Counted from the stretch's first letter, positions 1-64,000 are shown. The stretch: 64,000 nucleotides of DNA from Yuukianura sp. NJ FZ-2021 (GCA_046563655.1 CM102285.1:14880001-14944000), one strand, 5' to 3'. Made by a program: numbers and translations. The notes: a model not told the origin generated them from the letters alone.

Positions 1-57
1 TTATGGATTTTTGGATAGTTTTTTCAAAAAGTTTAAAAATTGAATTTTATTTTGAAG

Positions 58-234
58 TATAAAACAGAGAAGGATGGAGTAGTTGAAACTCGAGTGGAGC
101 AGAAGATTACGCTGCAATCAGATGGTGATCCGATTGACCATGACAATGCTCTCATGGCAGCAATCCAAGAAGCTACTGCTATGAATCCAGAACTAACTGT
201 AGAGAAAATTGAAATTCAGCAACATGGAAACTGA
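58..234 (+). CDS. cora: Terminal coding exon of a protein 4.1 / coracle-like FERM protein (4.1 C-terminal domain); rest of gene is upstream of the window
   Basis: Acceptor ttttgaag at 57, then YKTEKDGVVETRVEQKITLQSDGDPIDHDNALMAAIQEATAMNPELTVEKIEIQQ, which I recognise as the Coracle/4.1 C-terminal domain; TGA at 232-234. Confidence 0.88.
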   Translation, partial: YKTEKDGVVETRVEQKITLQSDGDPIDHDNALMAAIQEATAMNPELTVEKIEIQQHGN

Positions 235-1012
235 AATTTTGAAAATTTTGATGTCGGGTGAGATGATGGGATCGAATTAGAGGTTAAGCTGGATTCACAC
301 TACAACTTTAGAAAGAGCAACTTTTTGTGCAACTTTTTTGTGCAACTTGCCAAGGAGTGAGAGATAGCTCTCATTCTGCTGGGATTCAAAACACGCTGGA
401 GAAAAAATCGTAAAAAGTTATATTGGAAAAAAAAAAGAATTTATTTAATTTTTAGGATGTAAGAATATTTAAAAAGTTGATTAATCAGGCGGTGCAAAAT
501 GTACAGCAAGGAAAATTGTTAGCTTTTTTTAGTTGCTAAGCAACAGGATCCAATGCATTTAGAGCAAGCAACTTTCTGTTTTTAAATTATTGATGAACCT
601 TACAGGTGTAAATGTGCAGTTTAGTTTCAGTTTCTAATGTAACTCGACCATGACAAAGAAAATTTATACTCAATGAAGAGGCAGGTTTAGCACAACAAAA
701 AGCTTCATCATCCAAAAATCAAAATACTAATTAGTTAAGCTTAAGCTTTCAATTTTTGTACAACTTTGTGAATCTTTAGTAGCACTTTGTGGGAAATTTT
801 GAGAAAAAGTAATTCGTGGGGTTAAGGATGAGTAAGGAATTATTGTTATTTTTATGTTTAATTGTTGCTGTAATTTTATTTAATTCAGACAAAAACTAAA
901 CTTGTTTAGCTTTATACAATTCATGTGAAGAAGCTGTTTTTTTCCGAGTGGCCTAGAATTTATGCTTTACTCAAAATATTTACATGTAATATTATATTAT
1001 ATTTAATCGTAG

Positions 1013-1279
1013 CAGGTCATTAGCGCGAAAACCATAAACGCGAATTCGCCAATTTCGCAACATTGTAACTAAATTAGACTGGGTTTAAAGGTGGAGTTTT
1101 TAAAAGGTGTGGGTTAATTTTCCAAAGGTGTGGGTTTTGTTTTTAAATGTGTGTGGTAGGTTGTTTTAAGGAGGGTGGTAGGTTTTTGATGGGTGTGGGT
1201 TTAGGTTTCATTGCTAACACAGCTCTCAGTGTTGCCAACTTGTCGAATTCGCGCGTATTGTTTTCGCGATATTGACCTG
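1013..1279. mobile_element. MITE, 267 bp, 53-bp imperfect terminal inverted repeats, 3-bp TAG target-site duplication
   Basis: 1013-1065 vs reverse complement of 1227-1279 match at 44/53 positions without gaps; TAG immediately outside both ends (1010-1012, 1280-1282); interior has GTGTGGGTT-like repeats and no credible ORF. Confidence 0.75.
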
Positions 1280-1816: not shown

Positions 1817-3746
1817 ATGTTGGTGGCGTCAATGACTTACTTGTTTAATTTCTGGTGGAACTATTTTTCGCCGTTGCTTTTTAGTTTCAACAGTGTGCAA
1901 CCGAAGAGTTTAGTTTTGTCCAAATTTTCAGCGAAGAACGTTTTTGGACGACAAGATTCTGGTGGGGCTAAGGAGCCGATTATTTCGAAAGATGTCAATG
2001 ACGTGGTGTTTTTTCTCTATCCTGACGCAAAGTGAGTTGAAATTTTTGAATTTTGAAGATTTTTGGAAATTTTGAAAAATTTTGAATTTGGGTTTTTTTT
2101 CAGGAATTTGATGAACAAGGAGGTCCTGATTTTTGGAGATCCGAATTCGGTGAAATTTTCGTCCTACAAGAAAAAATGGCCGTTGATTATCCTGATTCAT
2201 GGATTTACGACGAATTCCAACGACGGATTTGCACAGACGCTCAAAAACGGTTCCAACGATTTTCCATTTTTTCTATAATCGATTATTTGGCATGATTACT
2301 TTGATTTTCAGTTGATTTCTTGAGTAATTAATTGATTACTTCCTCGTGATCTTTGATTTTCAATTGATTTCTTCAGTAATTAATTGATCACTTCCTCATG
2401 ATTAGTTTGATTTTTTGCGTAATCGATTAATTGTCCCGATTACTTAGTTTTTGAGTTGATTTTTTGTGGTAACGGATTAATTATTCTCACAATTACATTG
2501 GCTTGTGGTGATTTTGTGGGTAATCGTTTAGTTATGCTTGCTTTGATTTTTAGTTGAGTTTCTGAGTAATCGATTACTTATCAAGACTCCTCCGATTACT
2601 TTGATTTTTTCTTTGTTTTAGCCTACTTGGAGACCGGATACGCGTCCAATATTGTTGCAGTTGATTGGGGGAAACTGTCTTCTCCTACTGGATCCACACC
2701 GTCACTCTACTACAACTTGGCAGTGGCCAATGTGCCACCGGTGGCCAGCAGAATCGCTGATTTCATTCTGTTTATGATGAAGATTGGCGCAGTGTCCAGT
2801 CCCTCCAGTGTGCATGTCATTGGATTCAGCCTGGGGGCTCATGTGGCTGGACTCACTGGACAAAATGTGAACATGTCCCTTGGCCACCCCTTGGCTCGTG
2901 TCACGGGCCTTGACCCTGCTGCTCCAGAATTCCAGTTGAAACCACCGCATGAGAGACTGGACAAAACTGATGCTGCTTTTGTGGATGTTTATCACACGAA
3001 TCAGGGGTTCAAGGGCTTCTTAGGGCCAATTGGGCATGTGGATTTCATGCCCAACGGAGGTCAGAGGTCAAATGTCAACTAACTTTAATTCAATTAACAC
3101 CTACTTAAATGGACAATTAACTAAATGCGATGACTTTGTTTTAATCAAAGGTGGACCATTTCAACCGGGATGCTCAAACGGAACAGATTTTTCTGATGTT
3201 TTCACCGGTGAAAAAAATGTTCACAATTTAAATGATTTGTTATATGAACTTTTGCAGTTTCCTCCTTTCAGTTCCATCACCTCTTTTTAATTTCTGTGTT
3301 TTTGACAATGAAAAAAATTTGAAATTTGAAAATTTTGAAAAACTATTGAAATTCTTTTTGTTTTTTTTAGGATCGTGTTCTCATGCAAGAGCTTACGAGT
3401 ACTTTGAGAGGTCAATCCGAAACAGTTCCATAATTGCCTGTAAATGTGAGCTAAAGAGACTCCAAGGTCCGGCCAGAAACATTGTTCCTGAAAAATGCAA
3501 AATGGGCTGTGATGATCCAGTTGTTTTTGGACAATTTTGTCCTTACAGGTACAACCACGTTAAAATTCTGAAAATATTTAAAATTTTAAAAGAATTGAAT
3601 CTAAAAATTCGGATTTTCACTCAATCAGAAGTTTTTATGCCTATTTCTTGTTTGATTTCAGTGCAAGAGGAGTTTACTACCTTAAAATTATTGTCAGTGG
3701 GAAATTTCGGGCTAGAATCCGCTTTGGGTTTAGAGGGTTTAATTAA
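1817..3746 (+). CDS. Pancreatic triacylglycerol lipase / phospholipase A1-like alpha/beta hydrolase, 6 exons
   Basis: Exons ~1817-2031, 2104-2249, 2622-3059, 3151-3207, 3371-3548, 3662-3746 join in frame with GT-AG; motifs LIHGF, VDW, GFSLG (Ser), TGLDPA (Asp), DAAFVDVYHT, GHVDFMPNGG.QPGC, CSHARAYEYF (His). Start codon less certain. Confidence 0.9.
2278..2605. repeat. Degenerate short repeats (GATTACTT / TAATCGATTA / AGTTGATTT) filling lipase intron 2
   Basis: Many recurring copies of these words across the intron. Confidence 0.55.
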
Positions 3747-5727: not shown

Positions 5728-20381
<14,654 letters not shown>

Positions 20382-22933: not shown

Positions 22934-25900
22934 TGCAACCAAAAAACTACTTTTTGCTTCCATCTGCACCGATCTTGCAACAGAACCACCTCTGTCGTCG
23001 CTCATTTCACAAAAATAACAATACAAAACATGTTCCTTTTCATACAAAACACAAAACATCTTCATTTTTTAAGTTTTATTGCAAAAGTGACCTCAAGTGA
23101 CCTCAATTTGACCTCGCCCTCCTCATGTGAAATCTTGTGAGATCCTCACTCGTGCAATTCCAAAAAAAAAAAAACTGAGCAAGAAAATGACGACTTGAAA
23201 ACTAACTGATTGTTACAGTATTAAGTTTCATAATTTAGAAATTTTTCACAGGGTTTTACTTTTTTCATGAAATTTTGATAACTTTGAATTTGAGTTTTTG
23301 AAAATGTGAAACTACGACATGGAATATTGGTACAAAGCGGAACAATGTAAAGGGTTCCTGGGCACCTGTAAGTCACGACTTTGATTTGACCTTGTGACCT
23401 CACTTTTAAAATTTATTTTCGAAAAAAAATTTATAATGAAAATTTTGAAGGGAATGATCCGGACTTGGGAACTCTTTCAGAATTTAAATTTTTGAGAATC
23501 CATCACACTCTTAAAATTTGAGTGGCAGGGGAGAGATGCGGCAAAATTTTAACAAAAGTTTGATGCCAAGTTGTGTTTGTCCTTATCACAAATCCATAAA
23601 TTTACAGTTTCTTTTGTGGAAAAGTTAGTTTTTGTTTCAAAAGCAGCATTTTGGCAAAAAGTAGGATGCTCTTTTGCACTTTTTAGTAAAGGTGAGTTAA
23701 GGTGGGCCTGGGAGGGAGGGAGTAAGTGCGAGTGTCGCGTGGGGCGGAGGCTTGTGGAGTGTGTGGAGGAATTTGGGATTGTGTGAGAACGAGGCCGAGT
23801 GATCGTTCCCAGGCTCCCTCATCCGCTTCTTTATTTTTTATGTCCACCGCTCTAAACCACTTTACAAGGAATCTTTACAAGCATCTTCTCAACCACCGAA
23901 CCCCCGGGCCAAAAACACACTTCGGACTAACACACCCGCAACCTTTGACCTTTTCCGCACAAAATTGACCTCACAGTCCTTTGGGAGGGTTCAAAATTTC
24001 AAAGTTTTGACGAATTTCATCAAAATCTCCAAAAATTTTGACGAATTTCATCGAAAGTTCAAAAGTTTTCACGAATTTCATTAAAATTTCCAACATTTTA
24101 ACGAATTCCAGCAATATCTCAATACAAACCTTTACAAAATCGGTTTCACATCTGCACCTACCAAAGTTATTCGGTTTTACTCTTATCTTCGAAAAAAAAA
24201 ATTTTTTTGCACAACTTCAAAATTTCAAATTTCAAAATTTTAACAACTATTGCAGTGTAAATTACAATCGCATCTGCGTGTTAAGAATTTTTTCAGTTTG
24301 TGCTTCTTTCGAAGTCTTTTTGTTCGGCTTTTTAGAAAACAAAGCTACAAGAAGTTTTTGGAGGGGAGCCCTTGAAGGGTACATCCGAACCAGAAGTTTT
24401 ACAGTTGTACCTAGATGGCGGGAGATTGTTAAGGGTGCCAGGGGCCCTTAAAGTGTACTTCCATTGTTTAAGTGATTGGGGTGGGAGCCCTTTGTTTTAT
24501 GAATGAAATCTAAGCAGTTGGTTGTGTGTTTGTGTTCGTCATCTGGATTGAGTAATGTGTTGGTGCTTGGGAATCAAAAGCCAACTGACTTCCGGTTCCA
24601 AAAGTACAACTTTTTATGCTTCTCACCATAAGGCCTCACTCTTCAAAAAATTACACTTTCAAAAAACCAAGTTAAAAAAAACGAAAAAATGGAAATTCTC
24701 ATGAATGAGCTACCGTTGGAATTGGAAATTTGGAAAAACGAGCGACAGACGCTCGGCGCTGCTCCATTTTTTCATTCAAACTTTTCGTTTTCCTCAATGA
24801 AATTACGAACCTTCCCAAAAAAAAAGTTAAAAAAATTGTTACTCCCACAACACACCGGAAGTTGAGTAAAATCACTTCTAAATTTTGAAGTACCCACTGT
24901 TGCTGTTTAAGTACCCACCAACCACCTGACCTCCTGTGACCCTTAACCCATCTGACTTTGGACTTTGGGACCCTTAAAAACCAAAAAAAAAAGTTCAGAG
25001 GATGACTTTGTCCTTTTGGACAAGTTGTTCTAAATTGAGACAATTGAAATTTGGGTGAATTTTTAACGTCTGTTGCATTTTGAAAAAAGTCAGGCGTGCG
25101 TGAAAACGTAAAGTTTTGGTTCGTTTGCTTCTCGGAATTCTTTTGTGAACAACACGCCAACAAAAAACGAAGACAAATAACTGCAAGGGGAGATCAAGAT
25201 CAAAATTTCGATCCAACCAAACAGGAATTTCAAAAATCTTCATCACTTCATCTTCTCACTCATTTCGGCCAGTTAGCCACAAAATATCGTCACTTTTCAA
25301 TAAATTTTTTGCATTTTTCGAAAAAAAAAGCCTTTACTGTACGTCGATGTTCCAACTGAACGTAAATTTTCTAGCAAATTTTGATTTAAATTCCCGTGAA
25401 CGGTGTTAAACTTTTTTTAAAAAACGGAAAATATGGAAAGTTTGAAAACTTTTTTTCGAAAATGAACTCGGCTTCTTTTGAAAAAGGGAATAAATTCAGA
25501 ACGGCACGGGGGCCCTTGAACCACTCTCATCTTTCACATTTCAAATCACGAGAAATTAATTTAAGGGCCCCCTGAAACAAAGGGTCTTCTGCTCCTGCAG
25601 TGAGTGTGAGACTCCCAAGGGGTCCCCCCGTCGTGACCTCTATTCCGTGACCTCAGCACATTCGATATCCACGCTTAAAATGGTTTTTCGAAAGCGTTTT
25701 TTCAAAATGATGTTTTTCGAAAAGCATTTTTTAAAATGATATTTTTGAAAAACAGGAATTTAAGACGCTTGTGCTCAAAATTTCAATTGAATCCGACCAC
25801 TCTAACGGTCTCACATCTTCTCAAGTTTCTTCCAATTCATTTCTGAGTTGAGTCCAAGAGCGGGCCCTTAAGGGCCCCTTAATTGTCCAAGGGCCTCTTA

Positions 25901-28900
25901 ATTGTCCGGATTTTCTGGAAGATGAAATGGAATCCGCAGCATCCGGCTCAAGCCCATTTCTAAACAATTTTTGAATCTGAAAAAATTGAATTGAAATTTT
26001 CGGAAATGAACCTGCCCAGTCAGCCTTGTTCCATTATGAAAATTTTTAGAGACTTTAACCTGCCCTTGGATTCAGTTTCAAGGGCCCCCTTCCAGGGCCC
26101 TGTCAAGGGACCATGACCTGTCTCTCTCTCATTACGTTGCAAAACATTTCATGTGTCACCTTGGACAGAGTAGAAGGAATCTTAATCCTTGTTCAGTTAG
26201 ATTCATTATTCATACGCAGAAGGGTTACGTCAGGTGGACCCCTTAAGGGCCCTCGGCAGCAAAAAGAAGTCCCTTCAAGGGCTCCTGGATGACAACAACA
26301 AAACAGGTAGGAAGACAATCGTGTCTTTTCCAAAATCCAGCATGATCTCAGCAACAAAAGTTTCTTCAACCCCATCGTAACGCCAAAAGCAACACTTTCA
26401 TTCAATTGTTCGTTCCACTACAATGAAATCCAAAATTTCAAAAAAAAAGGAAAAAAAAAGTTCGAAATTTTCTTTCAAGAAAAAACTTTTTTGAAAAACG
26501 CAGTCGTTGATGTATTTACGGTTTTTCTGTTTTAAAACAGACGCAGACAGGAAAGATTAAAATCAGAAAAAATGGAGAGTTGACCTTTGGTGGTTTTGTG
26601 AAATTGGTTTTCGCTGTAGGTGAGTGCAGTAGTCGTGATGGTCGTGAGGGGCCCTTAAAGGGGTCCTTAGTGGTGACTGGAGCCCTTAGAAGGTGAGAGA
26701 GACAAAGTGGTGTGAGAGGCATGTCATGTTCGTCCAAAAAGTCCCGGAAGGGTTCCCTTAAGGGACAATGACTCTTCTCAAGATCTTCTGCAATGATACG
26801 GCACAAAAAGACGCCTCTATTCTGCCAAAACCGAAAAAAATCAAAATTTTGATCAAAACAGACAAAAAAAAGTGAAATTTTTAAGATTTATGACATTTTG
26901 AACAAAGTTTGTCCCCACCCCCTTCTTGGGGGGCTATCAAATGAGGGGGTTAAACTAATAAAAACGGTGGTTTTTATGATAAATCGGTTGGAAGTGTTAA
27001 AAAGTGTGAGAAAAGTTTAAGAGATTGAGGAGATGTGCTTGTGGTGATCTTGAGAGGATTTCTTGGATTCATTTTTTGAAAAAGTTTTTTAAAAAATCCA
27101 ATTTTGAAAAGGAGTTAAATCCTCGAAAGACGTTCGGATGCATGAAGCCCTTGTTCAAAATTGACCACAAAGGGCCCCCTTTTCTTTCTTTTTAAAAAAA
27201 GCCGTTAATAAACTTGGATTAACTTTGGACTTGAAATGAAAATGTCACACCTCCACGGTCTAATTAAAATTTCAAAATCTTAAACTTTTCAAAATTTTCA
27301 ACTTTACACCATATAAAAAAATGGCTTTTTGTTAAATTATAGAAACTTAAGCCCTACAGTTTCTTTTATTCTGTCCAGTTGCGGACGCTTGTTTTTTTTT
27401 TCTCGATAAATTTTGAAAAGCTGAAAAATAAAAATTTGTTGAAAGAAGGAAATTTGCAAATAAATTGCAAATTACGGAGATCGTTGGTAGTTTTTGTGAG
27501 ATGGAGATGTGGCACATTAAAAATTTTTAGTAGCTGCGGTCGTTTTTGTCCAATTGTTGTAAAACCTGATGAAGAACTTTTCTTTTATGGGGAAAAATGT
27601 GTGGAACGTGACTAGATTTCAATTAGTTTTTTTCCTCTTTATTCCTTCAAAATCAAAATTGAATTTTTTGACAAAAGGGCCGAATTTTGACGTAACAAGA
27701 AAACGGGTTTGTTTCATCATGCAGCTGAGATGAGGTTAAAGCCAAGTGACAACCAATCCTCCTCCTCGCATTTAGTAGTTTCTTGTTCCTACTGTTCAGT
27801 AGCCTAATCAACCTTAACCTAACTAACCTAACAAAAAAACTAACCTAACAAATAAGTGAACTTTGATATTTGGTGATGAATGAGCGGGTGGTTGAGTCAA
27901 TAATGACAGAGTGTGAAAATTGTGAAGTTGCGGAGGAGGTATGGGGGGGTTTAAGTGGGCCTTGGAAGGAGGTCCTTCGAGATGCAAAAACAAAGAACAA
28001 GAATCAGGACTGAGCTAGACTCCACCAGATCATTCGCATCTTTAACGTTAATTTTTGTATTTGCAATGCAAACGGGCTCATTAACTGTCAAAACAATTAA
28101 AAAGAGACTCCACGTGACATCATTTCTGCAAAAAAAACATTTCCCTACAGGAATGTAATGAGGTGAAAACCATTAGTAATACACAGAAGAAAAAATTCGA
28201 AAAATGAAAAATGTTCAGAATTTTCAAATTCCGAATTCTGAAAAATTCTTAAAATTTAGAATTCTGATTTCAGGTGAACATTTTTCATGTTTAACGCCTA
28301 CAAACAACTCCGAATTTAGGATTCGAAGTAAAAAATAATTTTGAAATTTTGTTTTTATGGCGCTGATGCCCCTCCATATTTTTCTCGGCGCGCGTATTTC
28401 AAATCCTAATTTCGTATTTTTCAAAAAACCGCCATTAATTTTAACTTTTTTGTTCTTTGTCTCGATGAAGCGATGATCTTAGGAAGATTAGAAACTGCTG
28501 CCGAGATTTGTTCTTGTCAGCAGCATCCCTGGTCCAGGCAACTACCATAACACTAACCTCAACGAAGCCAAGTGTCTCCGAGAGCCCTTAAGGCCCTTCA
28601 AAATTAACAGAGGAAATGCATCCTTTGAAGGCCCCACCGCCCCCTTAAGTCCCCCCTCCAGTAACCTGTCTACCAATTAATCACTGGCCAAACAGAGCCC
28701 CACTCTGCATAATCTCCCTCTCCTGATCTCCTAACTGATGGATGAGATTTTCCTAATGAAAATGAATCTTCCCACAGATCACTTACAGCAGCATCCCTTC
28801 AACTCTTCATTTGCATTTCTAAGGGGACTCCCCTTAGAGCCGCCAAAAACTTAAGAAGGGGGCCCTTCATTATGCAAAAACATAAGACAGACTCTGGGAA

Positions 28901-29958: not shown

Positions 29959-30046
29959 TCACTCCAACTACACTCTCAAGTACATCCGGAGGGCCCACCC
30001 TCCCTTTTTCAAAACAATACAGAACAAGTGCAAAGGGCCCACCAAA

Positions 30047-37924: not shown

Positions 37925-38371
37925 AATTAAGTACGCTAATTAAATTAAGACTTGAGATTAACACCATCGTGTTAAGGCTAACTTTAAAGGACTAATTTCT
38001 GCTTTTGTTCTTCATCCAGATTCTTTTTTTACATTTTAACTCGAGTCGAGTAAAATACTAACTTCTACTTCATTTTTGAATTTGAACTCAATTTTTAACA
38101 TACAGATTCAACAACGAATTGATTTGTTTGAGATTTACATTTTTGTTCATTGCGATTCGCAAGTTGCGAATTCGGAAGTTCCGAGTGCGAACAGAGGAGG
38201 CGGAAACAGCTGTTGCGCGCGTCAGGGCGTTGTTGATTTTGTTTTCATTTCCAAAATTGGCTCTTAATTTTTCCAGGTAATTGTTTTTGTTCTCTCCATC
38301 GTTCAAATGTCAAATGTAATTCATTAATTGGTTCTTCTTCCTTAATAATTTGTACTTAGTTTCATATCGGA

Positions 38372-40438
38372 ATGGGAGCCCAACTAGGCAAGGAAGACCA
38401 GAACAGACCCGCTCTAACGGAAGCGGAACTTCAACAATTAAAATCAACGTTTAGCAATATCAGAGCTTTCCAACACTCCGGAAAGCACGGTGCAGATGCT
38501 CAACATTCCAATGCATGTCGTACCGACGTATTTCAGGTTAGAATTTCTTTTAGTTTAGAAAACTCAGTTTAACATATGTTGAGATTAGAGTTAACGTATG
38601 AAGTTGTTGTTTATGCAATTCCAGAGTTTCTGCTGTCGTTCTCTGGATGAGTTCCTTTCGCAACAAATAGCTGCAATAATTGAAGTCGGATCAAGATCAA
38701 AAGAGCCCAATACAATTACATTCCAAGCATTCCAGCATTTCGTGTCAACTGCACTCAAAGGCGAGTTTGACCAGAAGGTTCAATGCATTTTTTTCATGTG
38801 TTCTGTTCCTCCTGTGTCACCATCGTCATTTTCTGCTCAGACAACTGTTACTGGATCCAGCATCTTGAAGGTAATCAAAACTTCAATTAACACAATTACT
38901 GTTATGCTTCATTTCATGTCTGTGATTAGCTGACTGCTTCAATCGTGACATCGTACGTTTGGCATTCGTTTCAAGATACACCCGGATTGAAGTCATGGAG
39001 TAATTGTCTTACGGCTACCAGTCAAGAGTCACGTGGAATCCAACTGGCAACGTATCTGCTCCACGATTTACTGTATCCATCAGGTCTGCCTAAGGATCTA
39101 ATTACTAAACAAGAAGATTTTGGATCTAGACAGTTCACTCTGGATGAACTCATCACTGGACTGGCCAAATCATCGCTGTTCCAAACTCTATTCAACTCTG
39201 TCATCAGCAATTGCTTCAAGTTTGACATGGATGTGAACGTTGTTACTAAAAACAAAGTTCCACGGTGCTTGCAAGTTAACCCAACACTGCTACCTACTAA
39301 CTTCACAATGTTAACTGAAGAGTCAGTCATGTTTCTCAATTCACTGCTTCCACCAGAGTTACAATCAAAATGGCGATTCCTCTTTTCATCTATGTGTCAT
39401 GGCGAAAGTTTTTCCAAGCTGCTTGAACGTATCCAAGAAAAAGGAGCTACAATCATCATCGTCAAAGATCAGCATGACCGAATTTTCGGATGTTTCGCAC
39501 CTTCTAGTTGGAAGCTTGGTCCAAAATTTTTTGGTAATCTCCAAGGTTGCTATAGCATCCAATTGAATTTCCTACAACAGGTTGTTCAATAACTCGGGGT
39601 TTTCGAAATTTTGAGTGAAAATAATTTTTTTTTGCCCGAATTCCGTTACATTACATACAAATCATTACTATAAAAAGGCACGACGAACCAAATTTTGTTA
39701 GTTATTAAAAAAAACTAGAAAACGTCGAGTTATTGAATAATCTGTTGTAGAAATCAACAATCTGTTTGTTTACCAACCTTGATAATTCCTTAATTTCCCG
39801 AATTGAACCGTTACTTGAACTTTTTTTTTATGTTTTCAGGCACTTCTCAATCGTTTTTGTTTCATCTGGCTCCAAGGTTCGCATCTTACGGAACGACACC
39901 TTACAATGAGAACTTCCAGTATTTGAACATGGGACAGAAAACTTTACCGAATGGATTAGTAAGTTCACTTTTTAGTTTACATTTTTTTAAATTGTTAACT
40001 TAATTGATAATCTTGCAGGGTATGGGTGGAACCCTGGAGTATTTTGGACTTTGGCTTGATTCTGAATACGGCAAAGGGATTTGCAGTCCCTCCTGCACAA
40101 CTTACACATGTCCGCAGTTGTCCGTTGAAAAAGAGTTTACCATAAATCGGTTGGAAGCATGGGGCGTCGGTCCAGAACCGGAGAAGGAAGAGGTAACATT
40201 ACCATCAATTCCGTCATTCCATCATACCGTCAATTACGTCATTCCTTCATGCCGTCATACCGTCAAATCCGTCATTCAACAAATTAATCAAGTTTCTTTT
40301 TTGCAGGGAGTTCGAGATCCAAAGAATATCAGTATTCTGGACAAAGATCCTGAGCTGAGAGGCGTTCTGGAAGTGATGGGAAAGAAAGTGAGTGCAAGCG
40401 ACGGTTACCGTGATGTGGATCCCATAGAAATAGAATGA
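38372..40438 (+). CDS. MEAK7: TLDc-domain protein (TLDC1 / MEAK7-like), 6 exons
   Basis: Exons 38372-38536, 38625-38870, 38930-39533, 39840-39958, 40019-40192, 40307-40438; N-terminal MG, WRFLFSSMCHGESFSKL, IFGCFA, FFGTSQSFLF, YNENFQYLNMGQKTLPNGLGMGG, FGLWLDSEYGKG, CTTY..PQLS, SILDKDPE. Confidence 0.92.
39575..39747. mobile_element. Tc1/mariner-type MITE (173 bp) in TLDC1 intron 3
   Basis: TIR CAACAGGTTGTTCAATAACTCGGGGTTTTC matches the reverse complement of the right end at 26/30; TA on both flanks. Confidence 0.75.
40201..40278. repeat. 8-9 bp microsatellite (CCGTCATT-like) in last TLDC1 intron
   Basis: About 9 degenerate copies of CC(G/A)TCA(T/A)T. Confidence 0.7.
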
Positions 40439-42774: not shown

Positions 42775-45700
42775 ATGGGCAACTTGTGCTCCAAAAGAAA
42801 AGGAAGTGACAGCAGCACTTCCGTCAAATCGGATCCGTAAGAAAAAAAACACATGACCTTTGACCTCTTGACCTTTGACCTTTCACATGTCCCTGATTTG
42901 TGAAAATTTGAAAACTGAATTTTGAATTTCATAAGTTCCAGGAAGGGATCTGCAGAGCAAGTGGAGAATCACCAGCAAAACGTCAAGAAGCAAAAGGAAG
43001 GCGCTGAAAAAAGTAGCGTCGTTGAACGTTCCAGTGCTGCGGAAGCGACTCCGTCGACAATCGCTGCAGAAACACCGGAAATGTCATTTCAAACGAAAGA
43101 CTCCGTTAGGAGCAGAATAGTCAGAGAGGCAGAGCCATCTAGCGTCTCTGGTAATTTCATTAAACTTATTAAATTATTTTTAAATATATTATTTTATATT
43201 AATGGTTTATTTTATTTAAAGGGGATTCCATGTCTTTATCTTCGCCTACGATGATCAGTGCTCCACATGTTCCAGATTTGCCATTTCCGTCTAAACTTCC
43301 TGCGGAAATTAAAAAACAATCAGACAACATCAAGAATTTGCTGGTCGGAAGAGTAGCAAAAGTCAAATCCGTCACTTCTTCAAAAAAAATCACTCTGTAC
43401 ATTTGTGCAGCCGATTCTCAAGGTATAAAAAAGTACAGAGTTGTTCAAAAGTTGTCCAAAACGGAAGTGAAAGTTAGACAGGAGTTGAAAATTTTCAAAT
43501 CATTGATGTGCGTTTGATCATTTTTGACGGAGGTTTTACACGTTTTTCAAAAATTTGTTTTCGTTTTCGACTTGCTTTTGAAAGGCTCTGTATGTTTTTT
43601 AAAAAGTACAACAGTTGGCGGTTTAAGTTTTTCCATTTTTTTTTACTGTTTTTGATGTTTTATGTTTTATATGAATTTTGTGGAGATGTGTGATTAGACG
43701 GCTTTTGGAATCCAAGCAACACCGCCTCCGCCATCCTCCTTTTTCTTTATAATTGCTCACTTTTTCAAAAAAGAAAGTTTGTTTTTGAAAAACTAAAGTT
43801 TAGCAAAAATAGAACTGGAAGAAAGAGAGATCTTTTGGTGTATTGAATGACACTTGAATTCAATTTGAACAACTCACTCTCCGCTTTCTTTCTTAGAAAA
43901 CTCTCTCGGGTTACTTTCCAAGTCGATTAGCAACCAAAAACGTCTTTTCATTCATTGTACTAAAAAATTAACTTTTTTGAAATTTTGAACTTTTTTGTAG
44001 ATTTTCGATTGGAAAAAGGCCACCTCCACACTGAAGTTTATCCGGGACTACGCGAGTTCTGTTCCAAAGCGGGATTTGAATTACATGTGACAGATTTGCA
44101 CTGGAAAACGGATTTAGAGATGAAACAGGATCACGATTTTCCTGAACTTTGTTTAGGCGAACTCAAACGTAACATTTAAAACTAAATTTTTCAAAATTTT
44201 GAACTCAAAAATGAAAATTTGGAATGAATTTTGAAATTTAATTTTGCATTTTAAAATTTCAGGTCAACAGGAAGTGGCTCACGTAATTCCGGTTTTGTTC
44301 CTCAGCAATTCACTCGGCTCTCCTTTACTGCCAAAAGTACGTTCACATTTAGTTATATTTAAAAAATATATTAAAAAAAATATATTAATATGTATTAAAA
44401 TAATATATTTTATTTGAATTGAAGACAATGGAGCAACAGGATTTCGAGATGGCTTTGTCCAACGTCTCTTCTAAAACGGGGAAAGCCCTGCTGGAGAAAT
44501 GGTACAAGTTGGACGCTCATGCTCAGCCGCAGTGCTACCGTCTCAGCCCCATTGCTGACCACATTCCCAACATTCAGGTGACCTTTGACCTTTGACCTCA
44601 GACGAAAATTGACCTTTTGAACAAATTTTGACCCTTGACCTTTCTCTGTTTTTGTTAGTCGGCTAACAGCAATGACAAGACGGAAGCCATTTCGGAGTGG
44701 CAAAAAGTTGTTGATGAAATTCTGGACACAATGCTCAGGGTTTTCCCGAATGAACTCAGGGACACCTACCTCACCACTGTCATTGAACAGGTTTTCAAAA
44801 AAGTTTTCAAAATTTTGAAAAATTTCAAAATTTCAAATTTTTTTTAAAGGAAATTCATAATTCGATCTTCATGAGTCGGGATGTTGGTAAGAGGAGTATC
44901 TGGACGAACAGATCTTGGACGGGCAAACAGCCGCAGTCTCCGGACATGCTCACTCCAGCAGAAGTGGAGAAAAATAGAAGACTAGAATCTCTGCACAACG
45001 AGCTCAAGGTGAAAACTTATTTAATTATTAACATCAAATATAATATATTTTAATTATTATATGTTTAATAGAATCAATTAGTTGGAGATAGGATCTTAAC
45101 ATTTTCTGTCAAGTGGAGAGAAGATGGGATTTCATTGACTGATGCTGAGCATCAGAAATACTTGCAAGACGTCTCTACTCAACTCTCAAGTCACCTCAAA
45201 ACTGCCATTCAAGAAATTATAGAAGAAGAGACAACCAAGGTAACAAAGTTTGGAGTTTTTTCAGCAATCCCATTCACAAACTTTAAAAAATGTTAAAAGA
45301 ATGTATATTTTGAAAAAATTACATAATTGAAAAAAACCAAAAAAAATATTTTGAGGTTCTACTGAGATTCGAACTCAGATCACGAGATTCAGAGTCTCGG
45401 GTGCTAACCATTACACCATAGAACCGATGTTGAGGGAAAGCGCCAAATAACATCAACTTCACCTTCTGTGTATATTCGCAATGTCTTGAAAATTCGCGTT
45501 TTGCGAATGGCTTACTTCGACAGTTGAAATTGACAAATTGCCAAAAATTTGCACAACACATTTTGAATAGCTTGACTTCCACAATAATACCAAAACTAAT
45601 CGCGCCTCTGCTGTTAATTACTTATATTTCGTTCAATTACGAATTAATTGTGCAACAAAATGAATTACTTAAGTAATTACTTAATTAATTAATATATTTT

Positions 45701-48700
45701 AATGGATTTTCAGGGAAAGTGGAAGAGTTGTTACGGAGTGAGTGGAAGTCTCTGCTCAGAAATTATGCACCACACTCTCTTCTGTCAACAAGGAGCCAAA
45801 TGCTGTCTTTCCTTTGACAATGTCATTGCAGATATCAAAAGGTTTGGAAAAAATGAAATTTTGAAATTCATTTTCCGAAATTTTGTTGTTGTTGACAATT
45901 TTTTTTCTTGAAATTTCAGTTACGTAGGTTCAGACGCTTCGAATCATCCGCTAGTGATCCACGGTCCACGGTCGTGTGGGAAAACGTCTTTCCTGTCCCG
46001 TGTAATTCACCAAGCATGGACTTGGTGCCCAGAATCAGTGGTGGTGTTCAGGTTTGCTGGATTGACCCAGGACTCAAGGTCATTAGGTCAACTACTCAGA
46101 ACAGTCACGACTCAAGTAGCACTTCTACTCACTGGCAGGAACTACTGGATCCCACATGTAAGGTCAAGGTCATTCAGCTCAAAGGTCAAAGGTCAGTGAC
46201 CTTTGAGGTCAAAAGTCACGGCGAAGTCTAAACTTTTGTGATATTTCCAGAATGCCAACTGCTACGTCAAGGAATTGTACAAAATGGTTTCCGGCTCCAC
46301 TTCTGTTGTCATTGTCATTGACGGACTAGATCGGGTAAGTTAACATGTGACCTAAAATTGGAAATTTTGAAATTTGAAATTTTGAAAATTTTGACCTTTG
46401 ACCTTTTTTCAGCTTACGACCAATGATGCCTCTGCGTTGGACATGTTAGCAGAACCACTTCCTGCGAAAATGAAGCTCATCGTGTCGTGTGCCGATGACA
46501 CGCCAGTCTTTCAACTCATTAAATCAAAAATCAAACAACCAAAGGCATTCGTCATGGTACGTTTTCAACATTTTAGTTTTCAAAAATTTTTTGTGAAATT
46601 TTGAATTCCTTGTTTTGAATTGTAGATGCCAAGCCTGAGCTTATTGTCTGCCGAGAGCCTGTTGACGGGCTCCATTCTTCAGTACAGTCACAGCATCGAT
46701 TCTGAAGTGCAGAAACGCCTATCTGCCAAACTCAGCAATTCTGTGCTTCCCATTTATATCAAAGTAATAAATATATAAATAAATATATAAAATAATTATA
46801 TTAAATAATATATTTTATTGGTGATTACAGATTTTAGCTTGGCAAGGAGCTATCGACAGCACTGGATTCACAAATCTCCAGCAAACTTCACTCGAATCTC
46901 TCGCAAATTCTCTTTTTGATTTTCTAGAAAAAGTGTTGGATCCGGAGAAAGTAAGGAATTCAAAAAGTCAAAAAACTTCAAAATTTTCAAATTTTCATTA
47001 CTTCCTTTTCTAAAAAACCATTTTTTCAAAAATTTTAATTATTTTTAGGTCAAAATTGCACTGGGCTTTCTCTGCTCTTCAAGAAACGGACTGTGTGATT
47101 CCGAACTTCTGGATTTACTTGCTCACTCGTCCAGTTTCGACTCAAAAATTACTTTTGGTAAAACACTAAATGCAAAATAGTTTCATAAACTGAAATTTTC
47201 AAAATTTTGGAACTTTTTCAAATTTTAGTTCCATGGGCCCCTGCTGCTGTGTTCTTGGCTCAACTGTTTCGTCTGTTGGGTCCTTTTCTGGACTGGCGTG
47301 TGTCCAGTGACACTTTTGTTGTCCAGTGGAGAGATGCTCTGCTTCTGGACATGGCCAAAGAGAGATACATAGGAGACATCAAAAATGGAAACAAACAGCG
47401 CCAAACACTACTCAACTACTTCAAAGTACTCAAAATTTTGAAAAAATTTGAAATACTTTTTAAATTTTAAAACTTTCTTTAAATTGTTTTACAGGGTGAT
47501 TGGAAAGACGCCAAAGATGGGAGATTCGTAGAATGGAATTCGGCTGGAAATTTTAAACGAGCCGCCGAGGAAATTCCGTTTCTGGAATGTCATATTTCTG
47601 GATCCATCAAATCCACTTACTTGTTCAACCTGGATTGGATTTTGAAAAAAATTCAAACAGTTTCCGTTTTTAGTGTAAGCCACTTTTTAAAAACTTTTAT
47701 TTTTTCTTTTACTTTTACTTTCAGTTTTATAAGTTTCTCCAAAAACATACATGCTCTCCGTTTCCTGATATTTTGGCCACCGCTTCTGCCTTTCCAGTTC
47801 GTGAATGGCTTCGCTTGATGCTTTAAACTTAAACATTTTCCAAAATTATGAAATTTTGAAAACTTCTGATTCACTTTCGAAATTGTGAAAATTTCTTTGG
47901 AATTTCAGGTTCTAGAGGACATTGACCTTGAAGCGCGGGTCAATGACCCTGATTTGACCCTGCTCAGACAATCTCTGGAGCTGAGTGCTTCTGCCCTCAG
48001 TTACGACTCTGCCCAGTTCTACGGTCAACTGTACAATCGTCTTCTGCCTTACTTTGGTAGCGAAGGGCCCCCCAAGGACCCCTCCAAGTGCCCCTTCACC
48101 CACTCTGTGTTCCAAGCAGCCAAGGCCTTCAAGGGCCCCTCCTTTGTCCCCCTGTCACCATTTCTACATAGTCCCAAAGACTATGATTCTTTAGTCGCAA
48201 GCTCCGCCTCTTTTCGGGATCTGGACAACTCGGACACGTTTTTTGACGAAGTTTACCGAATGAAGTCGAGCAATCAGTTTGTTGTGAGTTTGTCCACTAG
48301 TAAAGAAGAAGTTATGGTCTGGGACGCCTATGCTGAAGTAAGTTTTTCAAAATTTAGATTTTTGAATTTTTAAATTTTTGAAAAATTTTGAACTTTTTAG
48401 AAAACTATCCGGACGCTGAAGGGCGTGCACAATCCAGTATCGCTGAAAGTGATTGATGAGCATCGCTGCGTGATTCTGTGTGGACGTGAGCTCATTACGT
48501 ACAACATAGACTCTGGGACGGAGATCACTAAGTTGAAGGGCGTGATGAACCAGAAGATGCCATTCTATGGTCTCCATGACGACAACCACATTGTGGCCAT
48601 CTCCAGGAACCGCATGTATGTCAACCTCATGAACCTTGACACGGGCGACTGCATCACGACTTTCAAGGTCGGAGAAGATCGCTTCCTCAACTCACTTCTA

Positions 48701-50030
48701 GTGTCAGAAAACGGAAAATTTCTGGTCTGTGGAGGTAAGAGCATAATTTGACCCAAGGTTCCTTGACACCCATTTCATTTTCCTCAACAGGTTGTGTGAT
48801 ACCTCCGTTGTTTACCAAAAAATGAAAATAACCTTTTGCTTTTCAGATGAAACGCAAAAGCCGTTTCCACTGCTGGTGTGGGACCTTCCGTCGCGAAAGT
48901 TGCTCTATGATCTCAGAATTCCGCATCACGAATTTGTGACCTCTCTGGCAGCTATTACTAAGGAAGGTCACTTCGTCTGTTGTGTTTGTAGAGTAAGTTT
49001 TTCTCAAAATGTTGCAAAGTTCGCAAACAAGAAAACACTTTTTTCTTTAACAGGTTAGGCGATGAATCACATTTTTTCCCCCCAAAATTTAAAAAAAAAT
49101 GAAAAGACGATTACGGAAACTCTCGTTTTTGCAATTTTTCGGATACCGAAGTTTGTGGAGCGTGTTTTTTTTTAATCGGGAGTTATTGCCTAACTTGTTA
49201 AAGAAAATGTGTTTTGTTGCTAATGGAACCTTGAAATTTTGAACTTTTTGATTTTGAAAATTGTGAATTTTGGATTTGAATTTTCAGGAAGTGGATGATC
49301 CTGGTCCAAATTTTATAGTAGTGTATGACCTCCAGAGTGGAACTTTATTTAAAAAATGGAAACCTGGTTGCAGTACGCAAGCCATTGCAATTTCGGCACA
49401 AGGTGGCTGCGTCATCAATGCACTAGAAGACAACCGAATCATCGTATGGGACCTAGTGACAGGTACACTTTTAGAAAATTTAAAAATTTCGAAACTTGGC
49501 TTTTCAAAATTTTGAAATTTCAGGAGCCTCTCAGTGGTCACTGGAGAAGCATATAGCACCGCCAGATATTTTGAAATTAGACAACTGTGGTTCTCGCTGT
49601 CTTTCCTGTGACTCCCTGGGGAGAGATAGAAGCGTCTGTTTATGGGATGTCACTACTGGTAAAACTAAACATTTTCTATTATATTAAATATTTTATATTA
49701 TATTAATGTATTTATAATATATTTTTACTTCTCAGGCCGTTTACTGGCCATCTACACCCCTGATTCCCCACTTACTGCCTGTGAAGTGTTCAATAATGGA
49801 GATGGTGTTGTGTTAGGTAAGTTTAAATTCTAATTTTTCAGAATTTCAAATTTTAACAGTTTTATTTTTTTTTAACTTGACCTTTGACCTTTGACCTCTT
49901 AGGTTTAAAAGGTCGTTCCCAAGTAGTGACGTTGGCGTTTCAAGATGGTAATGCAGGGGCTGGCAGAGTCACGGAGAAATACGGGTCAGAGGAACATCAT
50001 GGAAAAATTACGGTACTCCAGAAGTCATAA
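42775..50030 (+). CDS. NACHT and WD-repeat domain protein (NWD1/NWD2-like STAND NTPase), more than 20 short exons
   Basis: ATG 42775 (MGNLCSK); N-terminal block ITLYICAADSQDFRLEK...VYPGLREFC...HVTDLHW typical of NWD proteins; Walker A PLVIHGPRSCGKTS, VVVFRFAGLT, Walker B VVIVIDGLD, CSSRNGLCDSELLDLL, FNLDWILKK, WD-type repeats (LLVWDL, IVVYDL, IIVWDL, VCLWDV); TAA 50028-50030. Confidence 0.87.
45354..45425 (-). tRNA. tRNA-Gln(CTG), intronic and antisense to the NWD gene
   Basis: GGTTCTATGGTGTAATGGTTAGCACCCGAGACTCTGAATCTCGTGATCTGAGTTCGAATCTCAGTAGAACCT, 72 nt; acceptor, anticodon and T stems fully paired; A and B boxes; T8 terminator at 45346-45339. Confidence 0.96.
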
Positions 50031-51165: not shown

Positions 51166-59391
<8,226 letters not shown>

Positions 59392-59759
59392 TTCGGATTT
59401 CAACTTTACACTTGATTCTCTGGTGACCTGTTGACCTGACCTTGAGATGAACACAAAGCGGGACAGAATTCGAGAGATCCAGTGGGGTTTGGCGGGGTCA
59501 CGGGGTTTTGTGGGGTCGTGGGGTTTGAGTACACTATTGTCCTGGGAATGATCGAGTTCTTGTGGACGACAACTTCGGATGAACAGAATTTGGCCACTAC
59601 TGTCTGTATCAGGAAGCGGATCTGTGTGGGTTAGAAGGAAAGTGCTGTGCTGTACGCATGATGATCCCACTCGACTTTCGGCTTTCAAACTCTCACTGAT
59701 TCTACGTCTCCAGCATCCCCTCCAACATGTCATGGCATTCTCACAACATCTTCAACCAT

Positions 59760-59976
59760 AGGGTTCCACGAATTCACAAAAATGTGGGGTTCGACGAAAC
59801 TTTAACTATCTTCCAATATGGGGTTCCACGAATATTCATTCACAAGGGGTTCGACGAATTCAGAAAGATACGGGGTTCGACGAATCTTCAGAATTTGGAG
59901 CTCAGAATTTTAACCTGGGGTTCAACCAATTTACAAAAATGTGGGGTTCGACGAATCACTTAGGGGTTCGGCGAAA
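59760..59976. repeat. Interspaced array of about eight GGGGTTC(G/C)ACGAA motifs
   Basis: Copies near 59760, 59786, 59820, 59845, 59872, 59917, 59943, 59963. Confidence 0.85.
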
Positions 59977-62900
59977 TTTTAACTCGGAGATCCACATATG
60001 CTTGATATTTCGACGAATTTCTGGATAACAAAAAATTGAAAAAAGTTAGAAAATAAACGATTTAACCTTTATTGTTCCTGTGAGATAAAAATCTGCTGTT
60101 TCCTGTCGATTTTTCTTAAAAGTAGGTCTGTGCAAGAATTACGTCATACGAAGTAGGGGGGAGGGTAATTTCCACCCCACCTCTCAACCACCCAAAGTCA
60201 TCATTTACGATACCCGTCAAAACCCAATTGCTCCAAAAATGTCAATGTCAGCACTGTTGGGTCATTCTGTACAAAGGAGTTTGACTGTTCCAGAAGAAAT
60301 TGGTTTTTAGAGACACAAATTCCAGAGATTACTTTAGTACTCTGCAACATGCAATCCACCCATTTACAACACAACTCCACGTGAACGTAAATGTAGAAGG
60401 TCAAGGTACAATTAGCAACTCTTACAAAGAATGGCAATTTGTTCTACAACTAAAAATAAGCTTCTTAACAATCCACTTTAACAACACTTTTACAACTGGC
60501 CTAATGTGAGACTACTTTGTAATAAATTCTGGAAAAAACCGGAAGAACGGAGTCGAAACTTCACTTAACGGTCCCACCGTGCCTGCTACCGTCAAGGACT
60601 AAAAGACTAAAAACAAATTCCACTAAAAAGAGTTCCTAAAATTCAACTGATAAATTCTGCGTGAGTCTAAAAGATTAGATAATTGTTAGCCCCAGAAATG
60701 TTGCTGATGAAAAATTTCGCGATCACAACATGTTTGTCTGTACTGTTATTATTATTAATTTACCAAATGCATAACAATTGAAGATGACCTTGGAGAAACC
60801 GCGGTCATTTTTTGAAATTAGGTCAGTAAGTCAACACGGAGCTTCCATTTTGAAAATTCGAAATTTTTGATATTTTCCCCATGGGGGGTTTTTCACCGCA
60901 AATCAACAAACAACTGTCAAACTCAATTTGAGGGTTTCCTGTTTTAGTTTTTGTTAGTTTTTTAAAAACTGTTGATTTTCCTTGTGTTTTGGACACCACT
61001 GTGAAAAATTGAGTGACCACTGTGAAAAATACATGTCAATTTGGCGTCTTCCACAACTTCCTGACCTGTCTAAAAACCAATTTCTGCTGACTGGAGCTCA
61101 TTTATTCCCGGTTTCCGCCAAAACCCTAAGCCTAAACCGAATGACTTCCTTCCATGAGTCTACTGGAGGAAAGACGTGACTAGACAACAGTCAAAAACCT
61201 AATCTTGACGTGATCTCAAATACACTTTGGGTTTACGTTAGGCTAGTCAGGTTTATGTTAGGTTAGTTAAGGTTAGGTCTACGCGATGATTACTTGAACA
61301 AGAACTCAATCCACTTCCACTGAATTCGCCCCCACAAAATAAATCCTCCGGAGAAATCATCCGAAAAATGATTTTCAAAAACTTTTTTTTCTCGAACTTT
61401 CTCCCTCCATAGCATAGCCAACTTCTTACCATTTTAAATTACTTTTTTCTTTCCAATTTTCTCAAAAAAAAAATTTTTTTTCAATTTTTAAAAATGAAAC
61501 TCAGCCATAATACACCTACACTGTTTTCATTTCTTCCACTAACGCCTCCTTCTCACTTCGATTTTTGTGTAAACGCGAGGAATCGATTAACGATAGGAAG
61601 TTGGGAATAATATTCATAAGTCTATCGATTGCACAAGACACACTTTACGTTTTTAAGAATAACAACTTATGAAGGTTTCACTAACAAAAGCCCTGGAACC
61701 ATTAACCTAACATAAACATAATCTAAAACCTAACCTTTGACATAAAAACCTAATCTAAAACCTAACAAAGTTGTTGAGCTTATAAATGAAAATTGGCGCT
61801 TCCTGAACAAAATCCACTTGAAATGAATTTCAATTTGGAGAACACAAAAAGCATTTATCACTCTCCGCCAAACGGCGGCTTGTCAAGAGCTTCTTTTCAT
61901 TACAAAAGAGGCAAAAGAAGATAAAGACTCAGCCATTTAACAAAACACTTAACACTTTTCAAAATTTACAAAAAAATCAAAGTTTAAAATCAAACACCTT
62001 TCAAAATTTAAAAAAATCAATAGTAGGTTCCGAACGTAACTTCGGAGTTAAATTTCACAAAAGTTTTCATTTAAAAAAAATTTTTGACTGGAGAAAACTG
62101 AATTTTGTGCATGAAAAATGAATCGGAGAGAAGCGGGAGAAAAATGGATAAAATTGGAAGAAGAGAAAACAGAATTGATTTGTGAACCTGTCTACATCCG
62201 AAACGACTATGATACTTTTCCGTTAACGGCTAAACGGCTCGATTGAGTTATGATCATAAGTGCTTAGAGTATCCTCAGAAATTTAATAAAAGTGTGCGTT
62301 CATCTTTGGATGTAATTTGATTTATGTCCTCATTCCACAAAAAAAGAGGAGAAAAACAGCCCAAACCGCACCAAAATTTCACTTTTTGTAATTTAGTATT
62401 TTAGTCATCAAATTTCAATAGGTTTCTCTTCTTCCTTTGAACTTTTAGACTAACACAAAAGTCAAAACAGGCTTTTCATGTGATAATTCACAAATTACGT
62501 AACAAAAGCATGGGGGGTTAAGTGTACCACTTTAGAGAAGAGTGGGGGGGGGATTTAGAATGAAATTGCATAAATTGAAACAACAAAAGAGAAATCACCC
62601 CAAAGTGACTTTTGTTTTCCTTAATTAAATGGTGCAAATCAAGTTCAAAGCACGCGACAAAAAAACACAATTCTGCGTATGCTAATTAATTATGTAAGCA
62701 TGAAGTGTGAATGGTCTTATTAAAACCAAACAACAAACAAACGCAAGTCACAAAAAACTGAAGTTATCACACAAATCAATCTAAACATTATTAAATTCTA
62801 CCAATTACCTTGCTGCATTTTGCTCCGCCTCTCCCCCCACGGTTTAATTGCAAATCAAACTGTCAATTTAAGTAAACTATACAAATCAAACCTTTACCAC

Positions 62901-64000
62901 AAAAAAAAAGCAAAACAAAGAGTTTTAGTGTTTAGTGGAAATGGAAATCGATAGAAAGCTTTTGCCGCAAGCATAGTTTTCCATTTCATTCGTAATTGAT
63001 CATTGTTTGCTCAAGGAAGCTTCAAGATCCCATGTCATTCAATACTTCTTTTCTTTTCCACAACATTTCAAAAAAAATTTTTTTTTTTTTGAAAAAGTGC
63101 AATTTGGAGTTTGAAATTACGATCCTGCCAAACCTGTCTTGTTTCATTTTTGTATTTCTCGTCAAGCCTTGTCACTTTTACTTTGTTCCACTTTTCACTT
63201 TACAAAGTCTACATAGAATGAAGTACGTAAACAATTGGATTTCTGTCATAAAACTGTCGCGCTACTCTCACTTTTTTCCAAGTTTTAAATTTCAAAAAAC
63301 ATAGCGAAAATTTTGAAAACCCAAAATTTCTGTACTGCTGTAGCGAAATATGGATTTTATGAGGCCAAAATCTAGTTTTTTTAAATTTGGATTTATAACA
63401 AATTCTGCAAAGATCTTGTTTCTTACCTTTTCAAAATCATGAACTAATAAATTCTGCAGTTTTTGAAATTTCTCAGATTCTTTCGAAATTTTGAAAATTG
63501 AGGTTAGGAATACACAAAAGAAAGGTGTTAAGAAAGATTGCGTTTGTGTTGATTTTGACTTGTAAGCCACAGAAGTTGGTTGTTAAGCCAGAGAAAGGAG
63601 AAAGTTCTTTTGTTTCTGGAGCTTAGGAAGTTTTAAGCCAAAGTGAATGGGAAGACTAAGCTGGGTGAACTGAGGGCTGGAATGGACGCTGGAAGCGCAG
63701 GGCAGTGCTCAACAAGCGTCAATTCCCAAGGCTAAACTCCCGTTCTGCAAGGACTCAACACAGTTCTGGACAAGGTTCCTTGACAACGAAAAGCGAATTT
63801 TTTAACAGGTTGGGTACTACCTCGGTTGTTGACAAAAAAAGGTACCAAATCTAAATCTTTAATAGGTGAGGTAATACCACATTCTTTTTTTACAAAATCA
63901 AAACATGTGGTATTACTCCACCTATTAAAGAAAATCAAAGTCAACAAACCTTGGTTCCGACTTTCGACCACTTTCACTCCCACCTCCAAACAACAAAATA

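Follow-up and report, generated by a model that had tools for sequence, protein, structure and literature searches.

Short introns filled with recurrent DNA words appear to follow gene type in Yuukianura sp. NJ FZ-2021

Do the short introns of Yuukianura sp. NJ FZ-2021 carry a shared vocabulary of DNA words, or do they record local base composition and slippage? The question is raised by a 64,000-nucleotide stretch, hereafter the window (GCA_046563655.1 CM102285.1:14880001-14944000), which corresponds to 14.880-14.944 Mb of contig C3 in a 98.7-Mb assembly with eight large contigs, and in which an earlier note had described each short intron as filled by a single word family, or ‘dialect’. The best named protein hits, at 53-78%, are to arthropods. 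Nine genes with 68 GT-AG introns were annotated by hand in the window and checked through translation, the intron calls resting on reading frames and GT-AG ends; 45 of these introns are short (≤130 nt). Six fixed word lists, based in part on the window and in part on counts across the genome, define the classes K (TTTTGAAAATTT family), W (TATATT), T (TGACCT), H (TTAATT/ATCGAT), C (GTTAGG) and P (GGGCCC), and an intron is counted as classed when one class covers at least 30% of it. For the wider genome, 75 stretches of 10 kb were sampled and 72 used (the satellite-like L004, L044 and L068 were left out); in these, a self-trained gene finder, first seeded on the window genes, predicted 387 short introns. 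In the window, the finder was right in 33 of 34 short calls and recovered 33 of the 45 true short introns, an initial setting having been discarded because it called too many introns.

The dialect appears to track gene type, word-filled introns being frequent at developmental and tissue-specific genes and few at the housekeeping genes examined. Two sets of loci, read after the word classes had been fixed, carry this result: homeobox loci (27 kept from the best 30 of 105 homeodomain matches) and proteasome loci (30 matches, 15 genes). K, T or W introns account for 13 of 20 short introns at the former and 3 of 56 at the latter (p=2e-7; by locus, 11 vs 15, p=5e-5), which is in line with the association with expression breadth that the note proposed to look for, Pfam gene-type labels serving as its proxy. 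The two sets are also separated by coverage excess over dinucleotide shuffles (0.136 vs -0.005) and by class-free 4-mer diversity (p=0.002); the homeobox-locus introns, some of which come from neighboring genes, have lower GC (0.24 vs 0.30) and are shorter (73 vs 83 nt). Among the 56 of 77 random-sample genes that could be labeled by Pfam, K is 0.163 for core machinery and 0.277 for secreted, detoxification, transport and signaling proteins (p=0.0016), with labels assigned after the scores were known. K correlates between neighboring introns genome-wide (rho 0.33, 197 pairs) and is therefore a property of the gene; its trend along the arms of contig C3 is at most mild. Inside the window, the COX5B/TLDc cluster echoes the contrast, none of its six short introns being K, T or W.

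Within the window, 37 of the 45 short introns are classed (K 25, W 6, T 4, H 2), and all 15 blocks named beforehand contain the word family assigned to them at coverages of 0.24-0.85, one start being corrected from 44168 to 44169. The window is nevertheless an extreme locus, as only 118 of the 387 predicted short introns elsewhere are classed (30%, against 18% in shuffles: K 93, H 19, W 4, T 2). Moreover, 49% of dinucleotide-shuffled copies of the window introns also reach the 30% threshold, only 18 of the 45 exceed their own shuffles at p≤0.05, and 6 of the 37 classed introns are mixed, with a second class at 0.25 or more (mostly K with T). Of the 419 non-coding 100-bp tiles outside short introns, 47 are dominated by one class. 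Several further details of the original description were not supported. In the gene encoding a NACHT-type/WD protein (NACHT-WD gene), K, W and T alternate at a 100-200-bp scale, but the supposed switching of class between adjacent introns is not significant (4 same-class neighbors vs 6.8 expected, p=0.083), and neighbors genome-wide tend to share K. Two GTTAGG blocks taken for short introns (16685-16756 and 17890-17960) instead flank the coding region of a nested gene, and palindromic 6-mers, to which many of the words were said to belong, are not over-used as a group (64 vs 2016 words, p=0.37). The concentration of GGGCCC around a hairy-type gene is upheld, with 29 copies in 11.9 kb compared to 41 across all 72 loci. 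Genome-wide, among the first 50 of 327 GGGCCC pairs, 5 of 38 clusters lie near homeobox or receptor genes, against 2.0 by shifting (p=0.046), with control genes giving 5 against 2.4 (p=0.089); pairs of the reversed control CCCGGG outnumber those of GGGCCC (457 vs 327). GGGCCC words also occur in a coding exon of the NACHT-WD gene, in a proline-rich stretch (48061-48140).

The existence of a genome-wide vocabulary is supported, as the dialect words head the list of 8-mers in excess and clump across the sampled loci. TGACCT clumps (at least three per 100 bp) occupy 21 of 4152 tiles at 13 of the 72 loci and none in shuffles, while TAATTA clumps occupy 16 tiles (0.2 in shuffles) and TTGAAA clumps 59 (17 in shuffles). 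K is concentrated in short introns, 24% of which belong to this class compared to 5.6% of 4530 interior 70-bp pieces (33% vs 15% when GC-matched), and in long introns it is slightly raised at the 3′ ends (p=0.035). The further expectation that introns form discrete classes is not supported for most of them, since K is graded and Markov-chain mixture models gain only 0.007-0.009 bit/base; it retains some force among very AT-rich introns, where K and W look bimodal, with TpA-poor (K) and TpA-rich (W) modes separated by a gap at 0.19-0.25 (n=36) and two components preferred for the TpA split among 85 introns (by 6 units of the Bayesian information criterion). The mixture classes also include an AAACGT/AACGTT word class, which the note does not name, among genome-wide short introns, proteasome loci included. 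T is present in both members of a recent paralog pair (L089/L090, 94% identical).

The classes differ in grammar, strand bias and location, and hence appear to be a set of separate phenomena, not a single code. K links A and T tracts, either directly as AATT or across a TG/CA hinge, and avoids TTAA/TpA, a pattern proposed here to be a grammar of DNA shape. K-type words are counted as AAAATTTT 310, TTTT[GC]AAAA 303, TTTTAAAA 199 and AAAA[GC]TTTT 108; within K introns the corresponding counts, which are partly circular as K is defined by such words, are AAATTT 208, TTT[GC]AAA 154, TTTAAA 44 and AAA[GC]TTT 28. The K unit measures 8-9 bp, where the TGA/TCA autocorrelation peaks before decaying, and its words are near strand-symmetric (TTTCAA 111:122). 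Separately, AAA/TTT in the non-coding DNA of the 72 loci shows a ∼10-bp periodicity, with peaks near 10, 21-22, 30-31, 39 and 50-51 and an amplitude of a few percent. W is TpA-rich, AT-only DNA, H consists of TAAT/ATCGAT words, and C is built on the telomere-like TTAGG unit. A perfect TTAGG array begins contig C4, and a perfect interstitial array of at least 550 bp lies at C5:2222940-2223495, possibly a fusion point or an assembly join.

T words, judged from sequence, are candidate nuclear-receptor half-sites on a 7-bp lattice formed by direct repeat 1 (DR1) and inverted repeat 1 (IR1) spacings. In non-coding DNA, AGGTCA is found 421 times (159 expected), and 15 of its 18 one-mismatch variants are at most 1.12-fold enriched, the exceptions being AGGTTA (1.71, telomere-like), GGGTCA (1.44) and ACGTCA (1.3). 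Among direct spacings DR1 leads (37 pairs, the next having 11); among inverted ones IR1 alone forms a peak (6 vs ≤1), with five more in the window and two at homeobox loci. IR1 is the classic ecdysone element, and RGGTCA is the half-site consensus. DR1 figures among the elements activated by EcR-USP in a published study (PMC5494300). T would accordingly share with nuclear-receptor response elements the exact half-site, the purine tolerance at position 1, and the DR1 and IR1 spacings, but it differs from them in being over-represented throughout the genome, in favoring the sense strand within introns, in overlapping splice donors and in entering codons. In short introns, TGACCT and CTAATT are sense-biased (44:11 and 34:11), and TTCAAA lies toward the 5′ side and TTTGAA toward the 3′ side. 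Runs of TGACCT may also be frequent in fish and mollusk introns.

K and T words also enter coding DNA, on both strands. Against synonymous shuffling, AGGTCA and TGACCT are in excess in 77 predicted genes (108 vs 35.7 and 80 vs 36.2) and in the nine hand-annotated genes (9 vs 2.9 and 9 vs 3.2); TTCAAA and TTTGAA are raised as well, more so in K-rich genes, although this shuffle breaks codon-pair bias and may inflate the coding excess of K words. Pooled codon shares in K-rich genes are lower for ATA (0.16 vs 0.24) and GTA (0.28 vs 0.35), and the observed/expected ratio of non-coding TpA is 0.58 at homeobox compared to 0.74 at proteasome loci. The process responsible acts on DNA, operates at many loci and varies with gene type.

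Local copying does not account for K or W. Across 130 K introns, the ratio of within- to between-intron k-mer sharing is 1.00, 0.88 and 0.59 at k=8, 10 and 12, whereas a single simulated local duplication per intron raises it to 2.0, 3.9 and 4.9; the ratio for W is ∼1. Slippage-derived micro- or minisatellite fill is thus rejected for both classes, which show no excess of intron-private repeats. In unclassed short introns, inverted repeats private to a single intron are in excess (within/between ratio 5-45 at k=9-12, 7-23 matches). It is very improbable, and largely refuted, that each class is a family of mobile introns (introners) or of miniature inverted-repeat transposable elements (MITEs). 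In its favor, 220 of 128,778 intron pairs align over at least 60% of their length, and a flank in common with another locus was found for 3 of 46 T clusters; however, the cross-locus matches listed are ∼80-90% identical, partial and in either orientation, that is, low-complexity, no end-to-end families were found, and no flank is shared by the W (0/37), C (0/18) or H (0/140) clusters. Several introns, K and W introns among them, also occupy ancestral positions: 8 of the 24 intron positions of the NACHT-WD gene (aa 640, 726, 762, 828, 888, 1191, 1249 and 1294) recur in orthologs from 22 metagenome loci. Thirteen orthologous introns on six contigs, cut approximately, contain no K or T, one W (0.30) and two H, a comparison that is no test of conservation because the animals are distant. 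A hairpin reading was likewise rejected, K introns folding no more than their words imply (z -0.27 vs 9-nt block shuffles, p=0.14).

The explanation favored here, and held tentatively, is that the dialects are several unrelated DNA-level signals that weak selection has fixed in the free DNA that regulated genes offer. In a compact genome, the 55-110-nt intron would be the main free DNA within a gene, and word signals would build up independently in old introns as weak selection (a fixation bias) for protein binding or DNA shape favored point changes that create words in regulated genes. One class, once settled in a gap of intron size, would favor more of itself, a feedback that could yield many homotypic introns, while housekeeping genes would exert no pull toward words. 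Weak selection is preferred because the specificity of T and its IR1 spacing call for a protein and because diversity appears high: reads from one sample show ∼700-790 variable sites per run over 19.9 kb, a count inflated by misplaced repeat reads at 80% similarity, which suggests a large population, where weak selection works (run X5 has alleles in common with runs X1-X3). A number of observations weigh against this explanation. The W introns are fully explained by dinucleotide composition (0/6 beat their shuffles), K coverage falls monotonically as a continuum genome-wide, and the ∼10-bp A/T periodicity is general and no stronger in K. T is no richer in short introns than in interior DNA (0.5% in both), shows some local copying (ratio 1.2-1.5) and favors the sense strand in introns (16 vs 4), a bias that receptor binding by itself would not predict; DR1 is also what 7-mer slippage yields, and no obvious expansion of the nuclear-receptor family is seen (38 exon matches). 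Two core genes, Nrap (0.32) and CPSF73 (0.29), are K-rich exceptions, and synonymous TpA falls only weakly with K (rho -0.24, p=0.05, 67 genes), a trend that fits a regional mutation regime equally well.

Such a neutral regime is a serious possibility, if on balance a doubtful one. Germline-silent genes would have another context-dependent mutation and repair spectrum (TpA loss, run extension, weaker repair), under which unconstrained introns would drift without function to a few sequence attractors, bound proteins possibly shielding their own sites. The correlation of K within genes, the pooled codon shifts, the lower TpA at homeobox loci, the two TpA modes and the presence of words on both strands all accord with it, and K, W and the codon shifts are accounted for just as well if the regime is linked to the chromatin of the germline. 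It copes less easily with T, as it is difficult to see how biased point mutation could yield one 6-mer and its purine variant at IR1 spacing without a binding protein, with the alternation of K, W and T in a single gene, and with the weakness of the gene-level codon effect. Action on the pre-mRNA, with words serving as U-tracts, branch-point-like TTGAC/CTAAT or 5′-3′ hairpins that define short introns, is improbable: the sense and positional biases and the concentration of K in short introns and at long-intron 3′ ends are consistent with it, whereas the strand symmetry of K, the lack of folding beyond the words, the coding excess on both strands and the splicing of housekeeping introns without words speak against it, and the sense bias of T could arise by purging of the AG|GT in the AGGTCA orientation. 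That an ordinary compositional continuum in an extreme window had classes imposed on it by the observer is quite unlikely and already weakened. The small mixture gain, the 70% of genome-wide short introns left unclassed, the frequency with which shuffles pass the threshold and the partial choice of words from the window are what it predicts, but it leaves the TGACCT and TAATTA clumps unexplained, together with a homeobox/proteasome contrast that used pre-fixed classes and survives both dinucleotide shuffling and a class-free measure.

A bolder proposal, and an unlikely one as a whole, is an intron-by-intron chromatin code in a methylation-free arthropod. Short introns of regulated genes would be linker-sized pads for one factor class each (an A-tract shape reader, a nuclear receptor and an AT-melting protein being the proposed classes), and the order of dialects would set inducibility or silencing; the dialects would then serve regulated genes as gene-body methylation serves housekeeping genes in other insects. 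Exon lengths beside K introns show no nucleosome-size peak (28 exons). The link to methylation suggested earlier was not borne out: an exon-wise genome search, which can miss genes, found no match to DNA methylase (PF00145), and the observed/expected ratio of CpG is unimodal and hardly related to K (rho 0.17, p=0.13). Loss of DNMT1 in springtails, flies and Strepsiptera is described in PMC5915941.

Individual words have known counterparts; the gene-type sorting of word-filled introns is the new element. The frequent short words and heterogeneous clusters of C. elegans described by Subirana and Messeguer (PMC2831315) share the K grammar, with AmTn and TmSAn common, AmSTn less frequent and long TmAn rare, and in both genomes AmTn and TmSAn exceed TmAn and AmSTn and telomere-like clusters occur. 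The C. elegans words, however, are described there as unclustered and following chromosome arms, whereas those of Yuukianura fill single short introns to saturation and vary with gene type; the main text of that report nowhere uses the word ‘intron’. The periodic An/Tn clusters (PATCs) of C. elegans (PMC4947018) likewise consist of A/T-tract DNA in introns with gene-class dependence and a proposed chromatin role, but have a 10-bp period, peak in ∼900-bp introns and mark germline-expressed genes. K, with its short-range 8-9-bp unit, its location in 55-110-nt introns and its depletion at housekeeping loci, is not a form of PATC: neither ∼10-bp periodic clusters nor, by proxy, germline-gene enrichment was found (proteasome 3/56 vs homeobox 13/20). 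The mid-range inhomogeneity of Prakash et al. (PMC2779198), from which the idea of a fixation bias is borrowed, concerns biased blocks of 30-1000 nt and is defined there for mammals and by base or base-pair content rather than by words, intron or gene type. The C words match the unit of interstitial telomere-like repeats, although here they are short and degenerate and form no intron class. A literature search, with subscription journals mostly outside its reach, found no description of homotypic word packing in single ancestral short introns sorted by gene type.

If selection maintains the words, short introns cannot serve as a neutral reference and, in the absence of methylation, bear a legible sign of whether a gene is regulated or housekeeping; if mutation maintains them, the state of germline chromatin is written into the genome at 70-bp resolution. 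These alternatives predict opposite allele frequencies. That the A-tract grammar of a nematode recurs in an arthropod suggests that its cause is general.

Table 1. Features of the window, with coverage by the word class concerned where available.
Feature	Position	Strand	Remark
K intron, lipase gene	2032..2103	+	K 0.68; Lipase family match
H-rich 372-nt intron, internal 52-nt duplication	2250..2621	+	H 0.24
H intron, lipase gene	3060..3150	+	H 0.35
Tyrosine kinase gene; K in 10/11 short introns	7312..20381	+	kinase domain by Pfam
K intron	13416..13487	+	K 0.79
Mixed T+K intron	13984..14077	+	T 0.38, K 0.39
Telomere-like GTTAGG block directly 3′ of nested gene, no short intron	16685..16756	.	C 0.68
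Nested four-exon gene, complete, antisense in 3.3-kb kinase-gene intron	16767-17877	-	telomere-like blocks on both sides
W (AT-only) intron, nested gene	17194..17251	-	W 0.88
Telomere-like GTTAGG block 5′ of nested gene's start, no short intron	17890..17960	.	C 0.30
W intron, 206 nt, last of kinase gene	20031..20236	+	W 0.51
GGGCCC-rich domain around second hairy-type gene	24400..36300	.	29 copies vs 41 in all 72 sampled 10-kb loci
COX5B / SF3B5 / TLDc cluster	36249..40438	.	0/6 short introns K, T or W
H intron, COX5B	36477..36573	-	H 0.34
NACHT/WD gene, 24 introns; short-intron class order TWKWTKWKTKKWKKKK.KWK	42775..50030	+	Pfam, word coverage
T(+K) intron	42837..42941	+	word coverage
W intron	43151..43221	+	word coverage
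K intron	44169..44262	+	K 0.72
W intron	44337..44424	+	W 0.49
T(+K) intron, sense TGACCT	44578..44658	+	T 0.56, K 0.31
K intron	44791..44849	+	K 0.74
W(+H) intron	45009..45071	+	word coverage
H block, 3′ end of 474-nt intron	45600..45713	+	H 0.36
T intron, AGGTCA orientation mostly, one IR1 pair	46158..46250	+	T 0.46
W intron	46764..46830	+	W 0.67
K intron	48338..48400	+	K 0.80
K intron, position common to orthologs in other animals (aa 1249)	49463..49523	+	
W intron, position common to orthologs in other animals (aa 1294)	49659..49735	+	
T intron, ankyrin-repeat gene	54935..55032	-	T 0.52
K intron, ankyrin-repeat gene	55482..55545	-	K 0.75

Pfam confirms lipase, tyrosine kinase, COX5B, SF3b10, TLDc, NACHT-type/WD and ankyrin proteins in the window, as well as two helix-loop-helix (HLH) genes, one with a Hairy-orange domain. 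The tyrosine kinase gene is presumably FAK-like and the ankyrin-repeat gene is taken to resemble PPP1R16; the nested minus-strand gene, for which a Pfam search gave no match, is assumed to be GNAT-like. A homolog search with an exon of the TLDc gene found no homologs.

The window also contains several other repeats. A 13-letter word, AGTTACTCCCTCC, has nine copies in the window and none in shuffles; six are loosely arrayed immediately within an ankyrin-gene intron (57680-58138), the others lying at 8431, 34259 and 56335. It is present at 7 of 158 loci, with clusters in L045, L060 and L088, and is either a further member of the vocabulary or the end of a MITE. A dispersed high-copy repeat with a palindromic CAAGG..CCTTG core lies within introns (39540-39720, 48754-48766 and 63771-63783), and read depth near 39.5 kb is ∼40 times background. 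A 131-bp tandem repeat (five copies, 96% identity, 52111-52762) has very high read depth, which points to a larger satellite family elsewhere. Outside the window, introns of two proteasome-subunit loci on different contigs (L124 and L125) are 88-93% identical, as expected of a recent duplication. Finally, adjacent substitutions cluster among the haplotypes of the window (39172-39187, 45466-45477 and 47737-47776), which suggests frequent multi-nucleotide changes.

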